Below are positions 1,682-34,996 of a stretch of 64,000 nucleotides of DNA, one piece after another. Both the position numbers and the translations under genes were made by a program. The stretch comes from Candidatus Paceibacter sp. GTDB lineage: Bacteria; Patescibacteriota; Minisyncoccia; UBA9983. The notes under the pieces are model-generated. The model was not told the DNA's origin. It worked only from the letters and a program-made list of their open reading frames with translations, and searched no databases. Within the stretch, counting starts at the first letter, position 1; each line of letters starts with the position of its first letter. Where the stretch lies: the NCBI GenBank assembly GCA_013360865.1, contig JABWAS010000003.1, positions 681-64,680 of the forward strand, given 5' to 3'.

Positions 1682-1773
1682 TTAAAACAATTTAATTATA
1701 ACAATTTTAAAATATTAAAAAATAATCAAATTTTAACTTTTAATTCCTAAGAATTAAAAGTTATTTGACGGGG

Positions 1774-3156
1774 TCAAAACATCAAATCGTTGGCCTCTTT
1801 GCGGGGCGCGCCTTTCTCCATCTCAACTTTCAGCTCCGCTATCCTGTCCTGGATCATGGCCGCCTGATGATAATCATCGCGGCGCGCCGATTCGCGCATT
1901 CTTTCTTCCATCGCCTTTATCATCTCTTCGTACTCTTCCCTGCTCATGAAAAATTTTTCTTTCTCCTCCAGGCGCTGCCTTATCTCCTCGTTCTCGCCGC
2001 GCGAAAGCTCGTCCACCAAACCCGTCCTCTGCCAGGAGAAAGCGGTAAAAACTATGTTTTTATACAATTCCTCCGCCGTTTCTTTTTCTTCTTTTTTGGC
2101 CGCCTTGGAATTTTTTATTATTTCTTTTAAGTCGTGCGCGCCGCGCTCTATCCACTCCAGGCTCCACCACGGCCGGGCGGAAGACCACCAAAACTGGTCG
2201 GAGGCAAGCGTCTGGTCAAGATACTTTCTTATGACGGCGTCGTTTTTGTCCGCCGATTCCAGCGCCAAATTAAGAAGCCGCCATTGCCATTGCTGGATTT
2301 CATTGTCTCTGTTGTTCCAACGGAAGTAGGGCTGGCCGATTTTGAAGTCTCGCGGCACCGCCGCCCAAGTTGAAGGGCGCGGCTCAATCGTTTCTCTTTT
2401 CGTAAAATTGAGCAAAACTTCGCTTATCGTCAGCGGCTTTATTTTCTCTTCTTTCATCAGGTCAAAAAGAAGTCTCTCCAGCCCAGGCCGGTGGTGGCCG
2501 AAAATTTCTCCGTCCATGGCCGTAAGAGCGTAAGTGTTTTCTTCACCCGCCTCGCCTTCCAACGTCCGCAAAATGCCGGGCATTGAGCTTTCCGCCGAGG
2601 CGGACAAAATTTTAAAGCTCAACTTTCTCTGCCGGAAGAAAACGGCGAATCCGTCCAGTCCGTCAATTTCGTAAACAACGTCTTTATTCGCTTTCCGCCC
2701 GTCCGGAAACGCCATCTCGTCTATGATTATCCACTTGTAACCGAGTCTTTTGGCCACCTCCGCCACCTTTTTGGAGTAGGCCATTTCCGGCGGAAAGAAA
2801 CCCCCTTTCTTCCAATTCTTCCCGAAATGTTTATTTAATGTTTCCTCGTTTAAAATTATCTGCCGCTCTATTTCCTTCTCCGGCAGCAAGGGCAAGAAGG
2901 CGTGGTACTTGGCGCTGCCGACAAGCTCCACGTTTCCTTTTTCAACCAGTTCGCGGATTTGCTTTAAAATATCCTGCCGGCCGTTTTTCTCCAGCAGGTC
3001 GCACAAAACGCCGCTGATGTTGAGCGTCAGGCGACACCTCTCTATATCCAAAAGACCGGAAAAAATTCTGGCATACGCCTCGGAGGCTATCCTTTTTATT
3101 ATCTCCGGCTTCTGCACCGCCGGTTGGTATATGTGCAAAAAATTGGCCCAGTTCAT
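1774..3156 (-). CDS. Glycoside hydrolase family 57 enzyme with a C-terminal UVR (UvrB/UvrC-type) motif
   Basis: All four GH57 signature regions are present: HIYQP near the N-terminus, GNVELVGSAKYHAFLPLL, GFFPPEMAY (nucleophile Glu) and MDGEIFGHH (acid/base Asp). The C-terminus …DDYHQAAMIQDRIAELKVEM matches the UVR domain consensus. Confidence 0.7.
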   Translation of the reverse strand: MNWANFLHIYQPAVQKPEIIKRIASEAYARIFSGLLDIERCRLTLNISGVLCDLLEKNGRQDILKQIRELVEKGNVELVGSAKYHAFLPLLPEKEIERQIILNEETLNKHFGKNWKKGGFFPPEMAYSKKVAEVAKRLGYKWIIIDEMAFPDGRKANKDVVYEIDGLDGFAVFFRQRKLSFKILSASAESSMPGILRTLEGEAGEENTYALTAMDGEIFGHHRPGLERLLFDLMKEEKIKPLTISEVLLNFTKRETIEPRPSTWAAVPRDFKIGQPYFRWNNRDNEIQQWQWRLLNLALESADKNDAVIRKYLDQTLASDQFWWSSARPWWSLEWIERGAHDLKEIIKNSKAAKKEEKETAEELYKNIVFTAFSWQRTGLVDELSRGENEEIRQRLEEKEKFFMSREEYEEMIKAMEERMRESARRDDYHQAAMIQDRIAELKVEMEKGAPRKEANDLMF

Positions 3157-3170
3157 TTTTTAGAATCGGA

Positions 3171-4661
3171 TTAATTTTTTTGGCGATGGAAGCTTATCGC
3201 CTTCGCGAACAAACGGGCGTATTCCGCCGCCGACTTGTCCCAGGAAAAATCGGCGGACATGGCGTTCTTCTGGATTTTCTGCCAGATTTTTTGATGTTTA
3301 TGATTTTCAATAGCCCTGACCACCGCCCCGAAAAGGGAATAGCCGTTAAACTTTTCAAAGACGAAACCGGTTCCCTTTTTAGAAACGGGGTCGTAATCGG
3401 ACACGCTGTCGGCCAGACCGCCCGTCTTCCTCGCTATCGGAATGGCGCCGTATCTCATCGCTTCCATCTGGGTCAGGCCGCACGGCTCAAATTTGGAAGG
3501 AATGACGACGGCGTCGGCTCCGGCAAAAACCATCCTCGGCAAAACATTGTCAAAAGAAAGATGGGTGGCGACGTTGGGATAATTTTTTCCCAGCTCGGTG
3601 AAAAACGACAAATATTTTGAGTCGCCCGTTCCCACCACGACGAGCTGGAAATTAAAATTTTCCAAAAGCGGCGGCAAAGCTTCCATCAACAGGTCCACTC
3701 CTTTCTGTTCGGTGAGTCTGGACACCAAACCGAGGAGAAAAACATCATCCGGTTTATCCGGAAGGTTGAACTTGTGGCGCAGCGCGGTTTTGTTCTTGGC
3801 CCGCTCGCCCAGTTTTTTGGGGTTGTATTTGATCTCAACACTCGGGTCGGTTTCCGGATTATATGTTTCGTAATCTATCCCGTTGAGGATGCCGAACAGG
3901 CGAGACCTCCTTTCCTGCAGAAGCCCGTCCAGCAGTTCGCCATATTCCGGCGTGGTTATTTCCTTGGCGTAAGTGGGAGAAACGGTGTTGACCGCGTCGG
4001 CGTAAATTATCCCCCTTCTCATGGAATTTATTTTCAGCAGCCGCGGGTCCGTTATGTCCGGCACGGGCGAATGGCCGTCGTCGTAATCCATCTCGCTGAC
4101 GAAACGATGGTCAAACACACCCTGATAAGAAAGATTGTGAATGGAGAAAACCGTGGCGATATCTTTCAAAAATGGGTTGTCCTTGTATTTTGTTTTAAGG
4201 TAATTGGGAATGAGGCCGGTCTGCCAGTCGCAGGCCACGATAACGTCCGGCCGCCAGTCTTTGTAAAAACGGATGAACTCCAGCGCCCCCCGGCAAAGAA
4301 GCGCCCACCTGGCCGCGTCGTCGGCGTAGCCGTAAATGTTGGCTCTCTGTTCGTAATACTCCTGATTTTCCAGAAAATAAACGGGAACGGCGGCATTTTC
4401 CGAAGCGAAAGCTTTGACGTTGCATATTATCATTTCCGAATCGTTGTTGGGCACTTCCAGCCGCTCAAAAACCATCCGCGTCGGACAATTTGTCCGGTCT
4501 ATTGAACCGTAAAATGGAAGCATTACGCGCGCGTCGTGCCCCAACTTCGCCAGCGCTTTCGTTAAAGAATGGACGGCGCTGCCCAAACCTCCGGCCTTGG
4601 CGAACGGAGCCGCCTCGGAGGCGACGAAAAGAACTTTTAGCTTGCTGTCTTTTTTAAACAT
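3171..4661 (-). CDS. glgA: Glycogen/starch synthase (GT5)
   Basis: The N-terminus KVLFVASEAAPFAKAGGLGSAV is the GlgA ADP-glucose binding motif, and the GT-B C-terminal half follows. Confidence 0.85.
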   Translation of the reverse strand: MFKKDSKLKVLFVASEAAPFAKAGGLGSAVHSLTKALAKLGHDARVMLPFYGSIDRTNCPTRMVFERLEVPNNDSEMIICNVKAFASENAAVPVYFLENQEYYEQRANIYGYADDAARWALLCRGALEFIRFYKDWRPDVIVACDWQTGLIPNYLKTKYKDNPFLKDIATVFSIHNLSYQGVFDHRFVSEMDYDDGHSPVPDITDPRLLKINSMRRGIIYADAVNTVSPTYAKEITTPEYGELLDGLLQERRSRLFGILNGIDYETYNPETDPSVEIKYNPKKLGERAKNKTALRHKFNLPDKPDDVFLLGLVSRLTEQKGVDLLMEALPPLLENFNFQLVVVGTGDSKYLSFFTELGKNYPNVATHLSFDNVLPRMVFAGADAVVIPSKFEPCGLTQMEAMRYGAIPIARKTGGLADSVSDYDPVSKKGTGFVFEKFNGYSLFGAVVRAIENHKHQKIWQKIQKNAMSADFSWDKSAAEYARLFAKAISFHRQKN

Positions 4662-4754: not shown

Positions 4755-6209
4755 ATGACAGCTAAAAACCTAACATCCAGGCCGCCAGTAGTGGTGGTGA
4801 TGGGACATATTGACCACGGGAAATCAACCCTGCTTGATTACATCAGGAACGCCAATGTCACCGCCAAAGAGGCCGGCGGCATAACCCAGCACATCGGCGC
4901 TTATGAGGCTGAAGTTGAGAGCGGCGGAGAAAAAAGAAAAATAACTTTTCTGGACACTCCCGGGCACGAAGCTTTTTCTCAAATGAGAACGCGCGGAGCC
5001 AGAGTGGCCGACGTGGCCGTTTTGGTGGTAGCGGCGGACGACGGCGTCCAGCCGCAGACAATGGAGGCTTACGAAACTATAAAAAAATCCGGCCTGCCTT
5101 TCATCGTCGCCATCAATAAGATAGACAAACCCGGCGCCGAGCCGGAAAGAGTCAAAGCCCAGCTGGCCGAAAAAGAAATATTTTTGGAAGGCTACGGCGG
5201 CAACATCCCCTTCGCCAACATCTCCGCCAAAACCGGCCAGGGCGTGCCGGAACTTCTGGATTTGGTGCTGCTCCAGGCCGAGCTGGGAGATTTAAAAGCC
5301 GACCCCGAAGAGCCGGCCTCCGGCGTGATAATAGAATCAAAACTTGATCCAAAAAGAGGCATTTCTTCCACATTGCTTATAAGAAACGGCGCGATGAGAA
5401 AAGGGCAGTTCATCGTCGCCGGCCAGGTTTCCGCCCCTGTAAGAATTTTTGAGGACTTCAAAGGACGCCCGTTGCAGGAGGCGACTTTTTCCTCTCCCGT
5501 CAGAATCACCGGCTTCAGCGGACTGCCCGCCGTAGGCGACGAATTCAAAACTTTTGCCGGCAAAAAAGAAGCGGAGCAGTTTATGCTCCAGCTTAAAGAA
5601 AAAATAACCAAAAAATCTTTGCCGGAAAAATCCGCCGCGGCTCCGGAAATCAAAGACAAGGCGTATGTCCGGATGATAATCAAGACGGACACCGCCGGAT
5701 CACTGGAGGCGCTGGAGAAAGAACTGTTCAAACTCAAAGACGACGAGGTTGTCTTAACTATGCTCAAGGGCGGCGTTGGCAACATAAACGAAGATGACGC
5801 CAAATTCGCCTCAGCTTCCTCCGGCTCCGTGATTTTCGGTTTCAACACGGGAGTTGACGCCGCCGCCAAAGAAATAATCGAGCGTTACAAAACGCCGTTT
5901 TTCGTTTCGGACATAATTTACAAAATAAGCGACTGGCTCAAGGAGGAAATCGCCAGAAGAAAAGCGGAAATTCCAAGGGAGGAAATCATCGGCACGGCCA
6001 AAATACTAAAAACTTTCAGCCGTCAGAAAAACAAACAGGTCATCGGCGGAAAAGTTGTTTCCGGCAAAATGGTTGAGGGCAAAACCTTCAAAATCAAAAG
6101 GCGCGACGCCGAGATTGGCGAAGGACGAATTCGGCGCCATGACGGAAAACAAAATAGAAATCGTCCGCGACGACGAGATAGTGATTATAGGGAAATAAAA
6201 AGAGGCTGA
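4755..6209 (+). CDS. infB: Translation initiation factor IF-2, compact form lacking N-terminal domains; possible frameshift near the 3' end
   Basis: G1 GHIDHGKSTLLD, DTPGHEAF, NKID G4 motif, and the IF-2 domain II/C-terminal pattern. The last ~25 aa (RRHDGKQNRNRPRRRDSDYREIKRG) look out of frame; the +2 frame gives …EFGAMTENKIEIVRDDEIVIIGK, which is closer to the IF-2 C-terminus. Confidence 0.75.
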   Translation: MTAKNLTSRPPVVVVMGHIDHGKSTLLDYIRNANVTAKEAGGITQHIGAYEAEVESGGEKRKITFLDTPGHEAFSQMRTRGARVADVAVLVVAADDGVQPQTMEAYETIKKSGLPFIVAINKIDKPGAEPERVKAQLAEKEIFLEGYGGNIPFANISAKTGQGVPELLDLVLLQAELGDLKADPEEPASGVIIESKLDPKRGISSTLLIRNGAMRKGQFIVAGQVSAPVRIFEDFKGRPLQEATFSSPVRITGFSGLPAVGDEFKTFAGKKEAEQFMLQLKEKITKKSLPEKSAAAPEIKDKAYVRMIIKTDTAGSLEALEKELFKLKDDEVVLTMLKGGVGNINEDDAKFASASSGSVIFGFNTGVDAAAKEIIERYKTPFFVSDIIYKISDWLKEEIARRKAEIPREEIIGTAKILKTFSRQKNKQVIGGKVVSGKMVEGKTFKIKRRDAEIGEGRIRRHDGKQNRNRPRRRDSDYREIKRG

Positions 6210-7329: not shown

Positions 7330-8477
7330 TTTAGTTCTATGGCGTTGTTTTGAATATCTTCGCGCGCCTGGCGTTTGGAATCAACCACTTTTGCCACCAC
7401 CAAGAAATCGGCGATGTTGAGGCCTCCGCCGGCCAGCGGAAATTTTTCCAGTTTTACCACCGATGAGTCGGTAAAAATTTGTTCCAAGTCGTCTTCGCTC
7501 AAATCTTTTATTTTGCCGCCGAAAAGTTTTTCGGAAATTTTCACGGCGACGGCGCAAGCCTTTTCGCTGTGGACAAAAACCGTTACCTCTTTAGCCAGCG
7601 TTTTCTGCGCTTCTCTTTTCTCCGGTTCTGTTTTTGTTTTTTCTTCCAGCGCTTTTATTTCTTCCAGACTTAAGAATGTATAATATTTTAAAAGTTTAAC
7701 AACATCGGCGTCTGTAGTGTTGAGCCAAAATTGATAAAAATGATAAGGCGAGGTCATTTTCGCGTCCAACCAGACGGCGTTGCCTTCCGATTTGCCGAAC
7801 TTTTTTCCGGAAGCGTCCGTCACTAACGGCCAAGTCAGACCTAAAACCTCCTTGCCTTTTGTCTTTCTCACCAGCTCAATTCCAGCCGTGATATTCCCCC
7901 ACTGGTCGGAACCGGCGATTTGGAATCCGCAGCCGTATTTTTCATCAAGCTGCATAAAGTCATATGCTTGGATGAGAGAGTAGCTGAACTCGGCAAAAGA
8001 AATACCATACTCCAACCGATTTTTTACCGCTTCTTTGGCAAGCATCTCGCTGATAGTAAACTTCTTGCCGATGTCGCGGATGAAATTAATGAAAGAATAA
8101 TCTTTAAACCAGTCGTAATTGTTTACGAATATTGCCTGCTTTTTAAAGTCAAAAAAACGGCCAAGCTGGTTTTTCACTGATTGGGCGTTTTGCTCAACTT
8201 CCTCCTCGCTTTTTAGTTCCCTTTCCGCCATTTTCCCACTTGGGTCGCCAACAAGCCCGGTCGCGCCGCCGACAAGAATAATCGGCTTCAACCCGGCTTG
8301 TTCCAGTCTTTTGGCTGTTATTGTCACCAGCAAATTTCCGACCTGCAAGCTCTCTCCGCTTGGGTCAAAACCACAGTAAAAATTGTTGCCTTTTTTTGCC
8401 AAATACTCTTTTACTTTTTCTTCGTTGGAAACCTGGTAAATAAGCCCTCTCTGTTTTAATTCCTCAAATATGTCCAT
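7281..8477 (-). CDS. tyrS: Tyrosyl-tRNA synthetase, C-terminally truncated by a 26-bp tandem duplication
   Basis: Class I TyrRS pattern GFDPSGESLQVGNLL (HIGH position reads QVGN), KFGKS (KMSKS), and a C-terminal S4 domain. See the finding on the duplication. Confidence 0.85.
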   Translation of the reverse strand: MDIFEELKQRGLIYQVSNEEKVKEYLAKKGNNFYCGFDPSGESLQVGNLLVTITAKRLEQAGLKPIILVGGATGLVGDPSGKMAERELKSEEEVEQNAQSVKNQLGRFFDFKKQAIFVNNYDWFKDYSFINFIRDIGKKFTISEMLAKEAVKNRLEYGISFAEFSYSLIQAYDFMQLDEKYGCGFQIAGSDQWGNITAGIELVRKTKGKEVLGLTWPLVTDASGKKFGKSEGNAVWLDAKMTSPYHFYQFWLNTTDADVVKLLKYYTFLSLEEIKALEEKTKTEPEKREAQKTLAKEVTVFVHSEKACAVAVKISEKLFGGKIKDLSEDDLEQIFTDSSVVKLEKFPLAGGGLNIADFLVVAKVVDSKRQAREDIQNNAIELNGEKVSELNSAKKSAN

Positions 8478-8551: not shown

Positions 8552-8624
8552 TCGGGGTGGCAGGACTTGAACCTGCGACCTCCGCATTGTGGGCGGCGCG
8601 CTTCCTAAGCTGCGCTACACCCCG
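8552..8624 (-). tRNA. tRNA, 73 nt, isotype unresolved (non-canonical anticodon arm)
   Basis: Canonical acceptor stem (CGGGGTG/CACCCCG plus A73), D-arm GCGC-AGCTTAGGAA-GCGC, and T-arm GCAGG-TTCAAGT-CCTGC. The only reasonable anticodon hairpin is CCGC-CCACAAT-GCGG, which has no U33 and reads ACA, or CAC if the loop is shifted. Confidence 0.55.
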
Positions 8625-10517: not shown

Positions 10518-10589
10518 AGGCGCGGGCGGGAATCGAACCCGCGTATGGCGGTTTTGCAGACCGCAGCGTTACCACTTCGCCACCGCGCC
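10518..10589 (-). tRNA. tRNA-Cys (GCA)
   Basis: Acceptor GGCGCGG, anticodon stem-loop GCGGT-CTGCAAA-ACCGC, T-loop TTCGATT, discriminator U73 (Cys identity). Confidence 0.85.
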
Positions 10590-28492: not shown

Positions 28493-30604
28493 ATGACTTT
28501 AAACTCCCCCTTTGAAGAAAATTTCCGCCTGACGGAAAGGCAAAAAGACGGCCTGGCCAAACTCGGGCTTAAGACCTCGCGCGATTTGCTTTTTTACTTC
28601 CCTTCCCGCTACGAACATTTTTCGGAAAGGAAAAATATCATTGATTTGGCGGAGGGCGACAAAACCACCGTCTTCGGCGAAGTGCTGGAAGCGGAAACTT
28701 CCAAAACCTGGCGCAAAAAAATGGCCATATCGGAAATAACCGTGGGCGACAACACCGGCCTGTTGAATGCCGTCTGGTTTCGCCAGCCCTACGTGGCCAA
28801 AATGCTTAAAATCGGCGACAAGGTGGCGCTTACCGGAAAAATTTCCATCGGCAAATCCGGCTTTTACGTCAGCAACCCGTCTTTTGAGAAAATAAGTTCT
28901 TACGAAGCGTTGGGCGAAGGTTCAATGATTCTGCCGATTTATCCGGAAACTGTCGGCATCACTTCACGATGGCTGCGCTTCGCCGTTGACCGTATTCTTA
29001 AAAAAGTCGGCCTGACGGAGCTGCAAGACCCACTGCCGGAAAAAGTTCTAGCCAAATATCATCTGCCCTCTCTCGCCTCTTCTCTTATCTACATTCACAA
29101 ACCGCAGAAAGAAAGCGACGCCCAAGCCGCCCGCAAAAGATTCGCTTTTGAAGAAATATTTTTCATCCAACTCGCCAGACTTAAACAACGCGCCGAAGTT
29201 GAGAAGAAACACTCTTACGCCGTCAAATGCGCGCCGGAAGAACTGGAAAATTTGTTTTCTCTTTTTCCTTTCCAGCTCACAAACTCGCAGGAAAATTCCA
29301 TCCGGGCGATAGCGGAAGACTTCCAAAAAAATCATCCGATGTCGCGTCTTTTGGAGGGCGACGTCGGTTCGGGCAAAACGGCCGTGGCAGTGGCCGCCAG
29401 TTTTATGGTTTTAAACAGCGGCCTGCAAACGGCCTATATGGCCCCGACAGAAATTCTGGCCGAACAGCACTTCAAATCTTTCATCGGCTATTTTTCCCAA
29501 CTCCGGCGGCCGGCAAAAATCGGACTTATCACATCCTCCGGCTGCAAAAAATTCCCCTCCAAGGTAAACGTCGGCCAACCGACGCCGATATCAAAAAGCC
29601 AGCTGCTTAAATGGGTGGAAAACGGAGAAATACCGATACTGATAGGCACTCACTCGCTGATTCAGGAAAGCGTGAGGTTTAAAAACCTGGCGCTGGCGAT
29701 AATAGACGAGCAGCACCGCTTCGGCACCGGCCAAAGAGCGCTTCTGGCCTCCCAAAAATCGGACAAAATTCCCCATCTTCTCTCCATGACCGCCACGCCC
29801 ATTCCCCGCACCCTGGCTTTGACCGCCTACGGCGACCTTGATTTGTCTTTGCTGGACGAGCTGCCGCAGGGGCGCAAAAAGATAATTACTCGCGCGATTT
29901 CGCCTAGTGGCAGAGATTCGGCTTACGAAGAAATAAGGAAAGAAATTTCCGCCGGACGGCAAGCGTTCGTTATCTGCCCAAGAATAGACGAGCCAGACGA
30001 AGAAAAAATAAACGCGCTTAACGTTAAAGCGGTAAAAGAGGAGGCCAAAAGACTGAAGAAAGAAATTTTCCCGGAATTTGAGGTCGGGATGCTGCACGGC
30101 AAAATGTTGCCGAAAGAAAAAGAAGAAGCGCTGAGCGATTTTAAAAAAGGAAAGACGAATATTCTGGTCGCCACCTCCGTGGTGGAAGTCGGCATAGACA
30201 TCCCCAACGCCACCATAATTTTAATAGAAGGGGCGGAAAGGTTCGGCCTCTCCCAGCTTCATCAGCTAAGGGGTCGGGTCGGACGGGGCGAGCACCAATC
30301 TTATTGCTATGTTTTCGCGGAATCAAAATCGCAGAAGACAATGGAAAGACTGAAGGCTTTTGTTGAAGGCAAAAATGGCTTTGAACTGGCCGAGTACGAT
30401 TTGCAGTTGCGCGGGGCCGGCGAGCTCGGCGGTGGCAAACAATGGGGCATATCCGATGTCGGTATGGAAGCTTTAAGAAATATCAAAATGGTGGAAGCGG
30501 CCCGGGAAGAATCGCAAAAAATAATCAAAGACGACCCGGAATTTAAAAAATATCCGTTAATCGCCGAACGGCTCAAAAACGGCAAAAAAATCCATTTTGA
30601 ATAA
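28493..30604 (+). CDS. recG: ATP-dependent DNA helicase RecG
   Basis: Wedge/OB N-terminal domain, Walker A DVGSGKTAVA, DEQHRFG, helicase motifs. Confidence 0.85.
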   Translation: MTLNSPFEENFRLTERQKDGLAKLGLKTSRDLLFYFPSRYEHFSERKNIIDLAEGDKTTVFGEVLEAETSKTWRKKMAISEITVGDNTGLLNAVWFRQPYVAKMLKIGDKVALTGKISIGKSGFYVSNPSFEKISSYEALGEGSMILPIYPETVGITSRWLRFAVDRILKKVGLTELQDPLPEKVLAKYHLPSLASSLIYIHKPQKESDAQAARKRFAFEEIFFIQLARLKQRAEVEKKHSYAVKCAPEELENLFSLFPFQLTNSQENSIRAIAEDFQKNHPMSRLLEGDVGSGKTAVAVAASFMVLNSGLQTAYMAPTEILAEQHFKSFIGYFSQLRRPAKIGLITSSGCKKFPSKVNVGQPTPISKSQLLKWVENGEIPILIGTHSLIQESVRFKNLALAIIDEQHRFGTGQRALLASQKSDKIPHLLSMTATPIPRTLALTAYGDLDLSLLDELPQGRKKIITRAISPSGRDSAYEEIRKEISAGRQAFVICPRIDEPDEEKINALNVKAVKEEAKRLKKEIFPEFEVGMLHGKMLPKEKEEALSDFKKGKTNILVATSVVEVGIDIPNATIILIEGAERFGLSQLHQLRGRVGRGEHQSYCYVFAESKSQKTMERLKAFVEGKNGFELAEYDLQLRGAGELGGGKQWGISDVGMEALRNIKMVEAAREESQKIIKDDPEFKKYPLIAERLKNGKKIHFE

Positions 30605-30668
30605 TTCTTAGTTGGACTCGGTTACAGATTTCTGCGATAGCGGGATTTTGTATCTGATGGTTAAGTTT

Positions 30669-30718
30669 AAAATCAAGGTTAAACCTTGAGATGCTTTTTA
30701 AGGTTTAACCTTGATTTT
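30669..30718 (+). terminator. Inverted repeat AAAATCAAGGTTAAACCT…AGGTTTAACCTTGATTTT plus T-run downstream of recG
   Basis: 18-bp arms, an A-run before and a T6 run after, so it may act in both directions. Confidence 0.55.
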
Positions 30719-30729
30719 TTCATTGGGCA

Positions 30730-30759
30730 TTGACAAATACTTACCTAAAATGGTATAAG
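30730..30759 (+). promoter_or_regulatory. Sigma70-like promoter (TTGACA-N18-TGgTATAAG) for the candidate ncRNA
   Basis: Consensus -35 and an extended -10; there is no ORF downstream. Confidence 0.5.
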
Positions 30760-30765
30760 GTAAAA

Positions 30766-31072
30766 AATACCTTAAAATAAGCGGACGGCGCAACATCTCC
30801 TCCCTGACGCCTGGTCAGCGCAGCGTCAGAATTCAAAACATATCTGTCGTTGTGCCGTTCGCTCAAAATAATCGGCAGGCGAAGGGTTCATAACCCGACT
30901 CGCTTGCCCGGCAAGAATAAGCGCTGGTGAATATACTAATACCGCAAAACCAATTCACCGCCGCGGCATCAACAAGCCGCGCAAGGTTCTTTTCTCCTTG
31001 TTTCTTTACTTGGCTTATTCTTGCCAAATTTTTAAACAAAACTCCAATTCGTTCGTTGGGGTTTTTATTTTT
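30766..31072 (+). ncRNA. Candidate ~300-nt structured RNA of unknown class
   Basis: It is promoter-driven, with a 14-bp helix (30781-30794 paired with 30849-30862) that contains two G-U pairs which would be A-C mismatches on the other strand. Several internal hairpins follow, and the 3' end is T-rich. Confidence 0.35.
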
Positions 31073-31083
31073 GAGATAAATAA

Positions 31084-31116
31084 ATGGGCGCACCAGGACT
31101 CGAATCCCGTAGAATT
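31084..31116 (-). repeat. Partial copy of the 3' end (T-arm plus acceptor) of tRNA-Ile, ~85 bp downstream of the intact gene
   Basis: …GGGATTCGAGTCCTGGTGCGCCCA resembles the tRNA-Ile 3' end GGTTCGAGTCCTAGTGCGCGCACCA; no 5' half is present. Confidence 0.5.
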
Positions 31117-31197
31117 GGCTTTGCAAACTCACGGGACAGGCCTAGGACCCCAGAGGTATATAAGATATAAAGTCGTCGCTCAAATCAAATGATTATG

Positions 31198-31273
31198 TGG
31201 TGCGCGCACTAGGACTCGAACCTAGGACCACCAAGGTATAAGCTTGGCGCTCTACCAACTGAGCTATGCGCGC
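31198..31273 (-). tRNA. tRNA-Ile with anticodon TAT (UAU); CCA encoded
   Basis: Acceptor GCGCGCA/TGCGCGC, D-arm GCTCAGTTGGTAGAGC, anticodon stem-loop CCAAG-CTTATAC-CTTGG, T-loop TTCGAGT, A73 plus CCA. Confidence 0.75.
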
Positions 31274-31330
31274 GCACCACACATCACTTGAATTTTCGCT
31301 AGACTTTATAAGCTCCGTGCTTGTGTGGAT

Positions 31331-33202
31331 TTATCCTATCTCCGCGTGGGTGTTTTCCAGAGTTTCTTTCTTCGGCCTGATTCCGTGCTTTGAGATTATA
31401 GCATTAAACTCGTCGCTTTCAATGGTCTCTTTTTCTATAAGAGTGCTGGCGATTTCTTCCAAAACAGCTTTGTGTTTGGACAAGACTTCTTTGGCCTCTT
31501 TGTGAGATTCGCTAATTATCTTCGTTATTTCCGCGTCAATTTCTTTAGCCACATCTTCGGAATAATTTTTTTCCGTGACAAATTCCTTGCCCAAAAACAC
31601 CGGTTCGCTTCGGCCGCCCCAAGCCACCGGCCCGATTTTGTCCGACATGCCGTAGCGCATCACCAAGGCTCTCGCGATTTCCGTGGCGTGTCGCAAGTCG
31701 TCGGCCGCGCCGGTCGTCAGGTCGTCAAATATCATTTTTTCCGCCGAGTATCCGCCCAGCGCCACCGCTATCTCGTCCGTAAAATGGGCCTTGGAGTAAA
31801 GATGCTTTTCCTCCAAAGGCAGTTTAAGAGTGTAACCGGCCGCTCTGCCGCGGGACACGACGGAAACTTTATGCACCGGGTCGGCGTGCTTGAGCACCGA
31901 CGAAACCAAGGCGTGGCCGGCTTCGTGGTAAGAAGCGATTTTCTTTTCCTCTCCGGTCAGGAGATGGCTTTTTCTTTCCGGTCCGAGCAGAACTTTTTCT
32001 ATGGAACGGATGAGGTCAAACTGGCCGATTTTCTTCCTTTCTTCGCGGGCGGCCAGAATCGCCGCCTCATTCATCAGGTTTTGCAAATCAGCGCCGGAGA
32101 AGCCGGGCGTTCTCTCCGCCACCAGTTCCAGATTCACGTCCTCGGCGAAGGGTTTGTTTCGGGAATGAATCGCCAATATTTCCTTTCTTTCCTTAATGTC
32201 CGGCAAATCAAGAACAACGCGCCGGTCAAATCTGCCCGGCCGCAACAACGCCGGATCCAGCACGTCTGGCCGATTGGTGGCCGCCATCACAATCACTTTT
32301 TCGTGGGGCTCAAAGCCGTCCATTTCCACCAGGATCTGATTGAGGGTTTGTTCCCTTTCGTCGTGGCCGCCACCCAAGCCCGCTCCGCGGTGCCTGCCCA
32401 CCGCGTCAATTTCGTCCACAAAGATTATCGCCGGAGCGGAACTTTTGGCCACTCGGAACAAATCCCTGACGCGGCTGGCCCCGACGCCAACAAACAGCTC
32501 CACGAACTCGGAGCCGGATACGTGGAAAAACGGGACATTGCTTTCTCCTGCCACCGCTCTGGCCAATAAAGTCTTGCCGCTACCGGGCGGTCCCATCAAG
32601 AGAACACCTTTAGGAATACGCGCGCCAATGTCCAGAAATTTTTTGGGGTTGCGCAAAAATTCAACTATTTCTTTCAACTCCTCCTTCACTTCGTGCGCTC
32701 CGGCCACGTCTTTAAACGTCACTTTTTCTTTTTTGTCGTCCGGCTCTATCACCCGCGCCTGCGTCTTGCCGAAAGAAAACGACTGCAGATTGGCGCTTTT
32801 GACCTGCCGGGCCGCCATCCAGAAAAAGAACACTATTATAAGTATCGGCAGAAGCAAAGGCAGAATGGTGCTCATCCACACCAAAAATCCGGATGGACTA
32901 CTTATGTCTATTTTTACCAAAGACAGCTGCTCTTTGGAAACGCCGTAGTTGGCCAGTGTTTCCGTCAGCGCCGTTTCCGTTTCTTTCTTGGATTCTATGA
33001 CTTTGCCGTCCTTCAGGGTCACTTCCAGATTATTGCCCTCAACTTTTATTTCCCGCACGTTGCCGGCGTTAATTTCGCCCACCAGCTGGGAAATGGGCGC
33101 CTGCTCTCTATCGGCAAACTGGCCGACGAGCAAAGAATAAAATCCCGCCATTACCATCAGGATAAGCAGGATTATTATGATGTTTTTGGAAAAAAGCTTC
33201 AT
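31331..33202 (-). CDS. ftsH: ATP-dependent zinc metalloprotease FtsH
   Basis: AAA+ [20 protein letters not shown], and the HEAGHAL zinc site. Confidence 0.9.
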
Positions 33203-33258
33203 GTTTTGATGTTTGGATTATACTATTAAAATCGCCAAAATCAACTTATAATAGGTTT

Positions 33259-33714
33259 ATGTCCGCGCTTTTGGAAAACAAGAAGGCTTATTTTGACTAT
33301 GAAATTATGGAAAAATTCCAGGCCGGTTTGGAGCTGCTTGGCTGGGAAGTTAAATCTTTAAGGAATAAACAAGGTTCGCTGGCCGGCTCCCGGGTGATAA
33401 TCCGGGGCGGCGAAGCGTTTTTAGTGGGAGCAAGCGTTTCTCCTTATCAGCCTAAAAACATCGCCAGCGGTTCCGCCAAAGCGGGAGAAGAAAACAGGAC
33501 AATAAAACTTCTGCTGACAAAAAAAGAGCTGAACTATCTGGCGGGCAAGGCGGAAGAAAAAGGGCTGACGCTCATCCCTCTTAAAATTTTTACTCTGGGC
33601 AAAAAATTGAAGCTGGAGCTCGCCCTCGTCCGCGGCAAGAAAAAATTTGAAAAACGGGAAAAAATCAAAAAAAGAGAAACGGAAAGAAATGTTAGGAGAT
33701 TGATGAAAGAGTAA
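33259..33714 (+). CDS. smpB: SsrA-binding protein
   Basis: …NKKAYFDYEI…, the KLLLTKKEL…KGLTLIPLK… pattern, and a basic C-terminal tail. Confidence 0.85.
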   Translation: MSALLENKKAYFDYEIMEKFQAGLELLGWEVKSLRNKQGSLAGSRVIIRGGEAFLVGASVSPYQPKNIASGSAKAGEENRTIKLLLTKKELNYLAGKAEEKGLTLIPLKIFTLGKKLKLELALVRGKKKFEKREKIKKRETERNVRRLMKE

Positions 33715-33723
33715 ATTGTTTCT

Positions 33724-34050
33724 TCAATTAAAAAGATCTTGTTTTATAAACGGTTTTAGGTCTGATTTAACGAGAATTCTTTGAGTGTCAGTTTTCTTAA
33801 TTAAAGACAATAATGGGGTTGTAGAATTATCTAGATTATTATCGTCTGTAATGGAAAAACCAACATATTCAATTTTCTCTTTATTTCTGTGGCGGACCCA
33901 GTCAATCGCTGGTATCAAATCCGAATCAGAACTAACAATAACAGCAGTATCGTATTGATTATCAACTGCTCCTACTATTAAGTCAGTAGCTAATTTAACG
34001 TCTATTCCCTTTTCTCGCAATCTCTCGAATTCGATTTTCTTAACACCCAT
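33724..34050 (-). CDS. NYN/LabA-like nuclease domain protein, apparently N-terminally truncated or using a non-ATG start
   Basis: …GIDVKLATDLIVGAVDNQYDTAVIVSSDSDLIPAI… is the NYN core. The in-frame upstream sequence …SPIIDNRVVDYKKLLS continues the domain but has no ATG, and a stop lies at 34147-34149. The region is AT-rich. Confidence 0.5.
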   Translation of the reverse strand: MGVKKIEFERLREKGIDVKLATDLIVGAVDNQYDTAVIVSSDSDLIPAIDWVRHRNKEKIEYVGFSITDDNNLDNSTTPLLSLIKKTDTQRILVKSDLKPFIKQDLFN

Positions 34051-34448
34051 ACTTAAAAGTTTTTTATAATCGACAACTCTGTTATCAATAATAGGACTTA
34101 CGCACTTTGGCAGAATTAAGCAAAATCCATGTGCTGAATAATGATTTTAAGCCATTAGTTGCTAAGTTTTTGCTAAAAAGTGCATTTTGCGTAAGTCCTA
34201 ATAATAATTACTTTTTGTCAGACGTCAAGATAATAAAAATTTACCTGTGAAAATGCAAATCTATTGACTATAAAAAAATAAACTATAAGCTAACGGTGGG
34301 GTTTGAGAAAGATTTGGAGCCAATCGGGCAACTCACCTTGCGGATAACAAAATGAGTCTAGTAACACTTCATTTATGGGGTTAAATTACCAGGGTTATAG
34401 AGAGGTCAAGTTAAAGATTGCTTGTGACTTATCTTCTGATCTACCCTA

Positions 34449-34484
34449 GCCCGACAATATTTATTGTCGGGCTATTTTATTTAT
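34449..34484 (+). terminator. Rho-independent terminator (AGCCCGACAATA…TATTGTCGGGCT plus T-run)
   Basis: 12-bp stem followed by ATTTTATTT. Confidence 0.6.
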
Positions 34485-34497
34485 AATATCAAAAAAT

Positions 34498-34527
34498 TTG
34501 ACAATCAGTCTTATTTTATAGTATTAT
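34498..34527 (+). promoter_or_regulatory. Sigma70 promoter (TTGACA-N18-TATTAT) for ssrA
   Basis: Consensus hexamers sit ~10 nt upstream of the GGGG 5' end of tmRNA. Confidence 0.65.
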
Positions 34528-34536
34528 GTTTTCGTA

Positions 34537-34886
34537 GGGGATGATCGGCCTGGACAAAGAGTACGTTTAAATCACGCAAGCCGAGTGTTCTAAAAACTCG
34601 TAAAACTTTCAGAAATCTAATTAAGCGTCAAAAACTTATTTAGCCAACCGGCGTTAGCTTACGCTTAACCCGGCGTTCCCCCGGCCCACTTCCGATAAGC
34701 CGGACGGAATGTCATTTATCGGGATAGGAAAATTTCCGCCTCAAAAATTTTCCGAAAAATTAGAGGCTCTGGATTCGGAGATTTTGATTGTTTAATACCC
34801 CGTTTCCGAAACGAACAAACAACCTAAGCTTGTAGAACTGATTTAAAACAGCTTTTTGCACGGCGGTTCGATTCCGCCCATCTCCA
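34537..34886 (+). ncRNA. ssrA: tmRNA (transfer-messenger RNA)
   Basis: The 5' end GGGGATGATCGGCCTGGAC pairs with the 3' CATCTCC-A. The T-arm is GGCGG-TTCGATT-CCGCC. It is ~350 nt and adjacent to smpB. A candidate tag frame ends …QPALAYA followed by TAA. Confidence 0.7.
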
Positions 34887-34996
34887 TAAATAAAATGCTC
34901 CAGCTTGCCTAGGGCCATTTTTATTTATGAGCACGATGAAACGGAATCGAACGGACTGACTAAATGTCAGTCCGCGGAATTTTCCATAAGAAAATT

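Follow-up and report, generated by a model that had tools for sequence, protein, structure and literature searches.

Positions 30730-31072 (plus strand) of the stretch of DNA analysed here (64,000 nt; hereafter the window) are a self-contained predicted gene for a folded RNA of about 300 nt. An earlier note had proposed a promoter-driven structured RNA of this size and of unknown class downstream of recG, and the proposal is supported by the boundaries of the gene, its fold, a null result in Rfam and counterparts in relatives. Judged by its sequence, the RNA is a putative member of a previously undescribed RNA family, of a kind already known, and its gene is a narrow accessory gene of a narrow clade of Paceibacteria (Parcubacteria, CPR). 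As to function, we propose that it may be a structured, non-coding, trans-acting sRNA (~307 nt), forming a new narrow-clade family and predicted to pair with Shine-Dalgarno sequences (SDs) so as to block translation initiation, a reading to which we give slightly under half of our confidence.

Gene boundaries and lack of coding capacity

The near-consensus sigma70 promoter described earlier (TTGACA-N18-TG-n-TATAAG) is present (Table 1) and its -35 box is kept in all eight lineages in which the gene was found; a generic promoter scan does not list it because the scan demands a T at position 6 of the -10 box. The T-rich end noticed near 31060-31072 proved to belong to a scored intrinsic terminator, in which TATTTTT comes after an 11-bp stem (31038-31065). 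Promoter and U-tract terminator occur together on the plus strand only. Upstream, the terminator of recG separates that gene from the RNA gene.

No open reading frame follows the promoter, as had been claimed: the plus strand has no ORF of more than 64 aa, none of the local ORFs has a Pfam match, and those in the window slot are short and without ribosome-binding sites. A protein-coding reading was rejected, the ORFs being short, unconserved and without a Pfam match. The intergenic sequence is 100% identical across six independently assembled runs (contigs with identical RecG); the RNA gene region is therefore not an assembly artefact, and these contigs offer no strain-level variation to analyse. 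The RNA had also been said to run antisense to a downstream tRNA-Ile fragment. As a normal state this is not supported, since the terminator ends 12 nt before the fragment, and the RNA would be antisense to it only on transcriptional read-through.

Table 1. Features of the RNA gene and its surroundings, by position in the window
Feature	Coordinates	Strand	Details
recG intrinsic terminator	30670-30717	+	20-bp stem and T run (terminator scan); upstream of the RNA promoter
Sigma-70-type promoter	30730-30759	+	-35 TTGACA 30730-30735; 18-nt spacer; TG 30751-30752; TATAAG 30754-30759
Predicted sRNA transcript, ~307 nt	30766-31072	+	Ends predicted, 5' by the position of the -10 box and 3' by the U tract of the terminator
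5' domain	30780-30863	+	P1 (30780-30794 with 30849-30863) encloses the exposed motif and a hairpin; MFE and centroid
Exposed anti-Shine-Dalgarno-like motif 1, AUCUCCUCCC	30795-30804	+	Unpaired probability ~0.98
Nested hairpin CUGACGC...GCGUCAG	30804-30829	+	Arms 30804-30810 and 30823-30829; MFE
Hairpin H2, GGCAGGCGA...UCGCUUGCC	30874-30908	+	MFE
3' multi-branch domain	30910-31025	+	Closed by GGCAAGAAUAAGC/GCUUAUUCUUGCC, three hairpins; MFE
sRNA intrinsic terminator	31038-31072	+	AAAACUCCAA/UUGGGGUUUU stem (one pair is U-G) and UAUUUUU
Truncated tRNA-Ile-like copy	31084-31170	-	Neighbour, outside the RNA gene; read in the sequence
Intact tRNA-Ile(UAU)	31198-31273	-	Convergent with the sRNA; tRNA and Rfam scans; missed in the earlier note
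ftsH	31331-33202	-	FtsH search
smpB	33259-33714	+	
tmRNA	34537-34889	+	Rfam

Locus and neighbouring genes

The RNA gene occupies a 727-nt gap around which recG and ftsH are convergent. The recG gene is the ORF at 28493-30604 (plus strand), and the identical database entry found in the RecG search is named Candidatus Paceibacter sp.

The truncated tRNA-Ile-like copy, flanked by the terminator of the sRNA and by the intact tRNA-Ile, spans the 3' strand of the D-stem to the acceptor 3' end and has a 36-nt hairpin inserted between the 5' strand of the T-stem and the T-loop; neither the tRNA scan nor the permissive Rfam scan calls it as a tRNA. Similar fragments lie in L084 (4872-4930), L086 (~6065-6145), L087 (~7335-7375) and L104 (~3868-3935), and the pseudo-tRNA is retained across diverged, streamlined genomes. 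Its 5' break point and spacer are common to the window and L086. Where the window fragment has its inserted hairpin, L086 and L104 have the palindrome CCTGCCT(G/A)CCGGCAGGCAGG, and L104 keeps its fragment with no intact tRNA-Ile nearby. Two intact tandem copies of tRNA-Ile are present in L003.

In most of 80 Paceibacteria loci (L001-L080), tRNA-Ile(UAU) is found ~0-4 kb downstream of recG, on either strand, which suggests that this linkage is widely conserved in Paceibacteria. The interval between the two is a variable slot with different small genes in each lineage. Beside tRNA-Ile and the sRNA, the genes ftsH, smpB and tmRNA are clustered in the window (31331-34889), L084, L086, L087 and L102, so that the components of trans-translation and the protease degrading tagged proteins are adjacent. 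Elsewhere in the window, at 8552-8624 (minus strand), ARAGORN calls a tRNA-Cys (50 bits in Rfam) with the anticodon ACA preceded by C, not U; a tRNA-Cys with A34 would be unusual, or else the anticodon loop may be mis-assigned, and a normal tRNA-Cys(GCA) lies at 10518-10589. The Rfam tRNA model matches L006 8405-8581 (minus strand) end to end over 177 nt with 55.6 bits and no ARAGORN call, perhaps because ~100 nt of inserted or intron sequence interrupt a tRNA gene there.

Fold of the RNA

The 310-nt stretch folds with an MFE of -119.6 kcal/mol against -73.8 +/- 5.7 kcal/mol for dinucleotide shuffles (z = -8.1 on the plus and -5.1 on the minus strand), and a repeat of the shuffle test gave z = -8.9 and about -5, respectively. 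The 5' domain is flanked by UUAAAAUA and CAAAAUAAUC. The 14-bp helix reported earlier, GCGGACGGCGCAAC (30781-30794) with GTTGTGCCGTTCGC (30849-30862; GUUGUGCCGUUCGC as RNA), is a feature of the MFE structure as well as of the centroid. It had been said to pair on the plus strand only, which holds since its two G-U pairs would become C-A on the minus strand; the G-U pairs of P2 change likewise. The nested hairpin CTGACGC...GCGTCAG and the hairpins GGTGAAT/ATTCACC and CGCGGC/GCCGCG, also reported from the letters, are all part of the MFE structure. The proposed hairpin CTTGCC-cg-GGCAAG is not used there, and its arms close the two larger helices at 30874-30908 and 30910-31025. Within the 3' domain, the hairpin CAAGG/CCUUG bears the CU-rich loop UUCUUUUCU at 30988-30996, and a CU-rich single strand (31002-31012) lies 3' of it. 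The fold is thus multi-domain, with both the 5' and the 3' terminus of the RNA unpaired.

Counterparts in the same slot of related lineages

The closest other RecG to that of the window lineage is 74% identical, and no close sequenced relative was found by RecG and FtsH searches and contig look-ups. An RNA gene directly follows the recG stop in seven further lineages, namely L084 (to which L101 is identical), L087, L098, L102, L103, L104 and L105 (to which L106 is identical). L104 belongs to assembly GCA_040960315.1, and L098, L102, L103 and L105 stem from Hainich groundwater samples. Conservation in relatives, on which the earlier note had left its claim to depend, is thereby found in the form of positional counterparts in which promoter, closing helix, exposed motif and terminator are kept. 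In the upstream alignment TTGACAA is invariant in all eight lineages; the spacer measures 17 nt in the seven relatives, whose -10 box is TAnAGT-like, and 18 nt in the window, which has the extended TG in addition. All eight RNAs end in a hairpin and a U tract, and the terminator tail with the spacer UUUUUAUUUUUGAGAUAAAUAAAU is nearly identical in the window, L098 and L105. Every member is much more stable than its shuffles (z from -4.8 to -9.5), with the plus strand scoring better than the minus strand in 9 of 9 sequences tested.

The members share a common anatomy. P1 is preceded by an AU-rich leader, whose last letters are UUUUAAAUA(U/A)A, and followed by the tail (A)CCAAAAUA. The helix has ~15 positions; its strands read CGGGAUUGGAACAG/CUGUUCCUUUCCCG among the seven relatives, and the window has AGCGGACGGCGCAAC/GUUGUGCCGUUCGCU. 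The interior of the 5' domain is variable, and its first loop invariably exposes an unpaired UCUCCC, CCUCCC or AUCCC (AUCUCCUCCC in the window). At least one later hairpin carries a pyrimidine-rich loop, usually with CCUCC (e.g., CUUUCCUCCUUUU or CCUCCUUUCU); in L087, L102 and L104 the terminator hairpin itself bears such a loop. The window and L084 have long forms of ~307-326 nt, the other members measuring 200-250 nt, and the extra 3' multi-branch domain of these two shares GGCAAGAA-N4-CGCUGGU and UCUUGCC...UUUUAAAACAA. In L098, L102 and L104, a small hairpin in the interior of the 5' domain pairs an SD-like GAGGAG or AAGGGG with CUCCUU, which sequesters one anti-SD-like motif (unpaired probability 0.01-0.25).

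Covariation and homology

P1 is almost invariant among the seven relatives, with one change from A-U to G-U. In the subgroup of L098, L102, L104 and L084, P2 shows 2-3 compensatory pairs and several switches among G-U, G-C and A-U, and L098 apparently differs from L105 in hairpin 2 by two compensatory pairs, as judged by eye and not by a tool count. Given that MAFFT gave no structure-consistent alignment of the window RNA, P1 was tested on 62-nt constructs that had been cut by hand so as to leave out the interior. The test set (n = 8) comprised the window, six of the seven relatives (L105 not included) and the weak candidate L006. In this set both partners change in 9 of 15 pairs and 85.8% of cells pair, a covariation count that is weakened by the alignment having been anchored by hand and its strands chosen by pairing; none of 500 shuffles reaches the observed values, and slid registers gave 34-52% paired. 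Sequence aligners place CAAC-AUCUCCUCCC of the window on the P2/loop region of L084 and not at the end of P1. Since the 5' strand of the window is in this way paired partly with P2 of L084, the window helix may fuse the outer P1 with P2, and part of the counted P1 covariation may compare non-equivalent helices.

In primary sequence, the body of the window RNA resembles the other members only weakly, with a BLAST match (E = 4e-4) for the terminator tail only. A global alignment of the window with L084 beats 299 of 300 shuffles (z ~3.5) and has collinear motifs. From synteny, the promoter, the collinear motifs, the shared extra domain and the terminator tail, we consider it quite probable that the window RNA is a diverged ortholog.

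Known RNA families, distribution and loss

The earlier note could not match the RNA to RNase P, SRP or 6S RNA by eye, and Rfam 15 likewise assigns it to none of them. At the gathering threshold, Rfam 15 finds only the tmRNA and tRNAs in the window and nothing for the RNA gene, which is also unmatched in the eight related loci. Permissive scans of window positions 30550-31330 and of the RNA regions of L098 and L084 returned sub-threshold chance matches, such as a plant miRNA and Plasmodium RUF1, so that neither the window nor the relatives has a match at gathering or permissive thresholds. For want of a covariance-model match in Rfam, RNase P, SRP, 6S RNA, tmRNA, riboswitches and catalogued sRNAs were rejected as identities. 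In the case of 6S RNA, the 5' and 3' ends are not paired, there is no Rfam 6S match at E = 10 and the gene is deleted in close relatives. A riboswitch or T-box leader is unlikely because no gene of the same orientation lies downstream, the next features being the convergent tRNA-like fragment, tRNA-Ile and ftsH. Also rejected were a type I toxin-antitoxin system, the minus-strand ORFs (41 and 89 aa) having neither a Pfam match nor a counterpart in relatives, and a sponge of the CsrB/RsmZ type, since the plus strand of the window RNA contains 0 GGAG and 0 GGGA and GGA occurs only on the minus strand. A 26-aa ORF, read by eye in L087, is absent in L102.

The gene has been lost repeatedly around its narrow clade. 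In an abundant clade around P0014, the recG stop is followed by AGUUUUUUUAUUU and then tRNA-Ile, and only the former terminator U tract is left. In L107, TTGACAACAAAA is kept and the RNA is lost, and in L081 a tRNA-Gly follows recG. At 68% RecG identity (L060, L001 and L003), the slot holds protein genes, nothing or two copies of tRNA-Ile. Given its deletion in close relatives and its absence from the slot at RecG identities of 68% or less, the RNA gene is dispensable.

Searches for further members were made in several ways. Neither blastn nor nhmmer with the window RNA gave a match in 80 GTDB Paceibacteria recG loci. A covariance model built from three close members (R1) recovered neither the window nor a convincing new member, and a regex-plus-pairing descriptor together with a mini-P1 model that included the window (R2) found no further members in 92 sources. 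A pattern scan of metagenomes yielded four loci, of which two were chance matches in a coding gene, one was a duplicate of L084 and one was the new member L102. Viral contigs scanned for the 3' strand of P1 gave 0 matches. The sole weak match of R1 was L006 1744-1865 (E = 0.16), with a similar helix and flanks at another genome position. This candidate (1690-1865, minus strand), ~2 kb upstream of recG, has the leader UUUGAAAAUUA, the helix CGGUAUACGGAGUAG/CUACUUCGUCUCCCG, the tail ACCAAAAAUA and a terminator; it is without an exposed UCCC loop, scores z = -5.8 on its own strand against -2.4 on the other, and is possibly a distant relative of the sRNA.

Exposed motifs and proposed function

Partition-function folding gives motif 1 (of the UCUCC, CCUCC and UCCC types) an unpaired probability of 0.7-1.0 in all eight members. 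In five members CCUCC occupies a hairpin loop, either that of hairpin 2 or that of the terminator, and in hairpin 2 its unpaired probability is at least 0.9. Unpaired positions contain 3.4% G and 66% C+U, and the window RNA has 4 CUCC and 0 GGAG. These exposed C/U-rich loops (UCUCCC, CCUCC and CCUCCUUUCU) appear, by their letters, to resemble the anti-Shine-Dalgarno sequence. In silico, the RNA thus combines an own promoter and terminator, lack of coding capacity, C-rich unpaired loops and G-poor strands, which are the traits of UCCC-type sRNAs. Because this architecture matches that of Gram-positive sRNAs with UCCC/C-rich loops, a trans-acting translational repressor of SD-led mRNAs is proposed.

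According to this proposal, plus-strand transcription of the sRNA would be driven by a separate sigma-70-type promoter immediately downstream of recG and would end at its own intrinsic terminator just before the convergent tRNA-Ile. Stable helices would hold out G-poor single strands, AUCUCCUCCC in the 5' domain and UUCUUUUCUCCUU in the 3' domain, which could pair with the purine-rich ribosome-binding sites of a subset of mRNAs. Such pairing would block translation initiation of SD-led mRNAs, as in the Gram-positive sRNAs. The analysis shows in silico the limits of the gene, its strand and fold, its lack of coding capacity, the conserved architecture and the exposed motif; expression of the sRNA, its pairing with mRNA and the identity of its targets are what we infer only. 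Among 50 start regions of the window, RNAduplex gave no convincing targets. With heuristic start picks, about a quarter of the larger ORFs in the window lack a Shine-Dalgarno sequence and carry a TATAAT-like box only 6-14 nt ahead of the start codon, e.g., at 4661(-), 4755(+), 33202(-) for ftsH, 33259(+) for smpB, 35065(+), 36379(-), 49211(-), 60627(+) and 62954(+), and strong AGGAGG sites are found at a minority. This suggests leaderless or very short-leader mRNAs and, as many genes seem to be leaderless, few SD targets may exist.

Alternative explanations

The gene may be real and structured and yet act through an RNA-binding protein (for example S1, a cold-shock protein or a KH protein), which its pyrimidine-rich single strands and P1 with its flanks would bind or titrate, or as a mimic of the 16S rRNA tail, possibilities that we jointly regard as unlikely. 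A protein partner would fit the observation that P1 with its AU-rich flanks, and not the C-rich loops alone, is the best-conserved part, and also the multi-domain, very stable architecture, which exceeds most seed-pairing sRNAs in elaboration. Either possibility would suit the result of RNAduplex on 50 start regions of the window, where the best duplexes lie only at the 0.1-1.4% tail of the random background, with start picks that favoured SD-like sequences. However, no partner gene is consistently linked, the neighbours being housekeeping genes, none of the protein-binding RNA families of Rfam resembles the RNA, and the content and position of the motifs vary among members, which fits pairing seeds better than a fixed protein site. 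As to mimicry, CCUCCUUUCU is displayed by L087 and L104 (by eye) and presumably matches the Bacillus-type 16S 3' end. That the RNA, through its CCUCC or CCUCCUUUCU loops, imitates the 16S rRNA 3' tail and competes globally for SD-led mRNAs is in our view very improbable; if it did so, it would shift translation between SD-led and leaderless messages and not affect a few specific targets.

That the whole is a non-functional structured remnant in a tRNA-adjacent recombination hot spot, such as the leftover of an integrated element with an incidental promoter and terminator, is improbable. The slot is indeed variable, with protein genes in L060 and L087 and nothing in L088 and L003, 3' parts of tRNA-Ile are duplicated at several loci and the RNA has been lost more than once, all of which a remnant would explain. 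It would not be expected to keep TTGACAA and the promoter spacing while the surrounding sequence diverged beyond alignment, nor to preserve its helices through compensatory and G-U changes and a strongly negative fold z-score in every member. The RNA is moreover always on the recG side, with insertions falling between its terminator and the tRNA, and viral contigs have no matches. Listeria and Clostridium have antisense RNAs under riboswitch control, and the 5' domain could likewise be the sensor of a riboswitch or regulated terminator, read-through of which would give an antisense of tRNA-Ile(UAU) and ftsH. The short forms L087, L102 and L104, where the conserved 5' domain is followed by the terminator and, a few nucleotides on, by tRNA-Ile, lend themselves to such control, which is nevertheless distinctly improbable: no alternative anti-terminator pairing is evident, in the window and L084 two further domains intervene between 5' domain and terminator, conservation is lowest inside the 5' domain, at the expected site of a ligand pocket, and the terminator of L103 lies ~170 nt from the tRNA and that of L104 is followed by no intact tRNA. 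Barely credible, finally, is a functional minus strand that acts like CsrB/RsmZ as a sponge for a CsrA-type protein. Its loops, reading AAGGAGGAAAG and CCUGGGAGAA, would show GGAGGA/GGGAGA and contain GGA, but a promoter and a U-tract terminator exist only for the plus strand, the G-U pairs of P1 and P2 turn into C-A on the minus strand, and the minus-strand z-score is the weaker in all nine sequences.

CPR/Patescibacteria have tiny genomes and few recognisable regulators; as far as we found, hardly any regulatory RNAs are described from them, and no descriptions of sRNAs in these bacteria were found in the literature. A delimited sRNA gene with eight lineages and a testable seed motif offers an entry to post-transcriptional control in uncultivated bacteria, and the family could enter RNA family databases. 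Its general importance is limited by its narrow distribution and repeated loss.

Comparison with known systems

The RNA has no Rfam match to RsaE, LhrC, RNAIII or 6C, the last of which is also a base-pairing sRNA with a UCCC/C-rich loop, and the resemblance to them is functional and architectural only. With 6S RNA it has in common that it is stable, abundant-looking and a few hundred nucleotides long, and that its 5' domain combines a closing helix with an asymmetric internal loop. It differs in being multi-domain with the ends of the whole RNA unpaired, and loss in sister lineages would be unexpected for 6S RNA.

In sRNAs with UCCC or C-rich loops, the motif pairs with the Shine-Dalgarno sequence and blocks 30S binding (PMC2790875; PMC4132741). 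Staphylococcus aureus RNAIII is, like the window RNA, a large multi-hairpin RNA, and its C-rich loops, including that of the terminator, bind ribosome-binding sites (PMC2790875). RNAIII measures 514 nt, also codes for delta-haemolysin and is under quorum-sensing control; the window RNA has none of these traits, and there is no homology. In LhrC of Listeria monocytogenes, which is G-poor, the UCCC motif likewise binds the SD, also from within the terminator loop (PMC4132741), and the short forms L087 and L104 similarly carry CCUCC in the loop of the terminator hairpin. LhrC is multicopy, whereas the window family has, on the present data, one copy only, at a fixed locus; LhrC also lacks the long conserved closing helix P1 with AU-rich flanks, and the two are not homologous.

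The window RNA also resembles RsaE/RoxS and the other UCCC-bearing Rsa sRNAs of Staphylococcus and Bacillus; RsaE, like RNAIII, binds SD sequences through an unpaired UCCC motif (PMC2790875). No similarity of sequence or covariance model links these to the window RNA, which has 307 nt against ~100 nt, adds a multi-branch 3' domain and is hosted by a CPR bacterium, and the window family more often has the full anti-SD CCUCC. Both are nevertheless free-standing genes with their own promoter, a Rho-independent terminator and no ORF, both keep their fold as the sequence of the helices varies, and both have conserved unpaired UCCC/C-rich loop motifs that are predicted to pair with Shine-Dalgarno regions.
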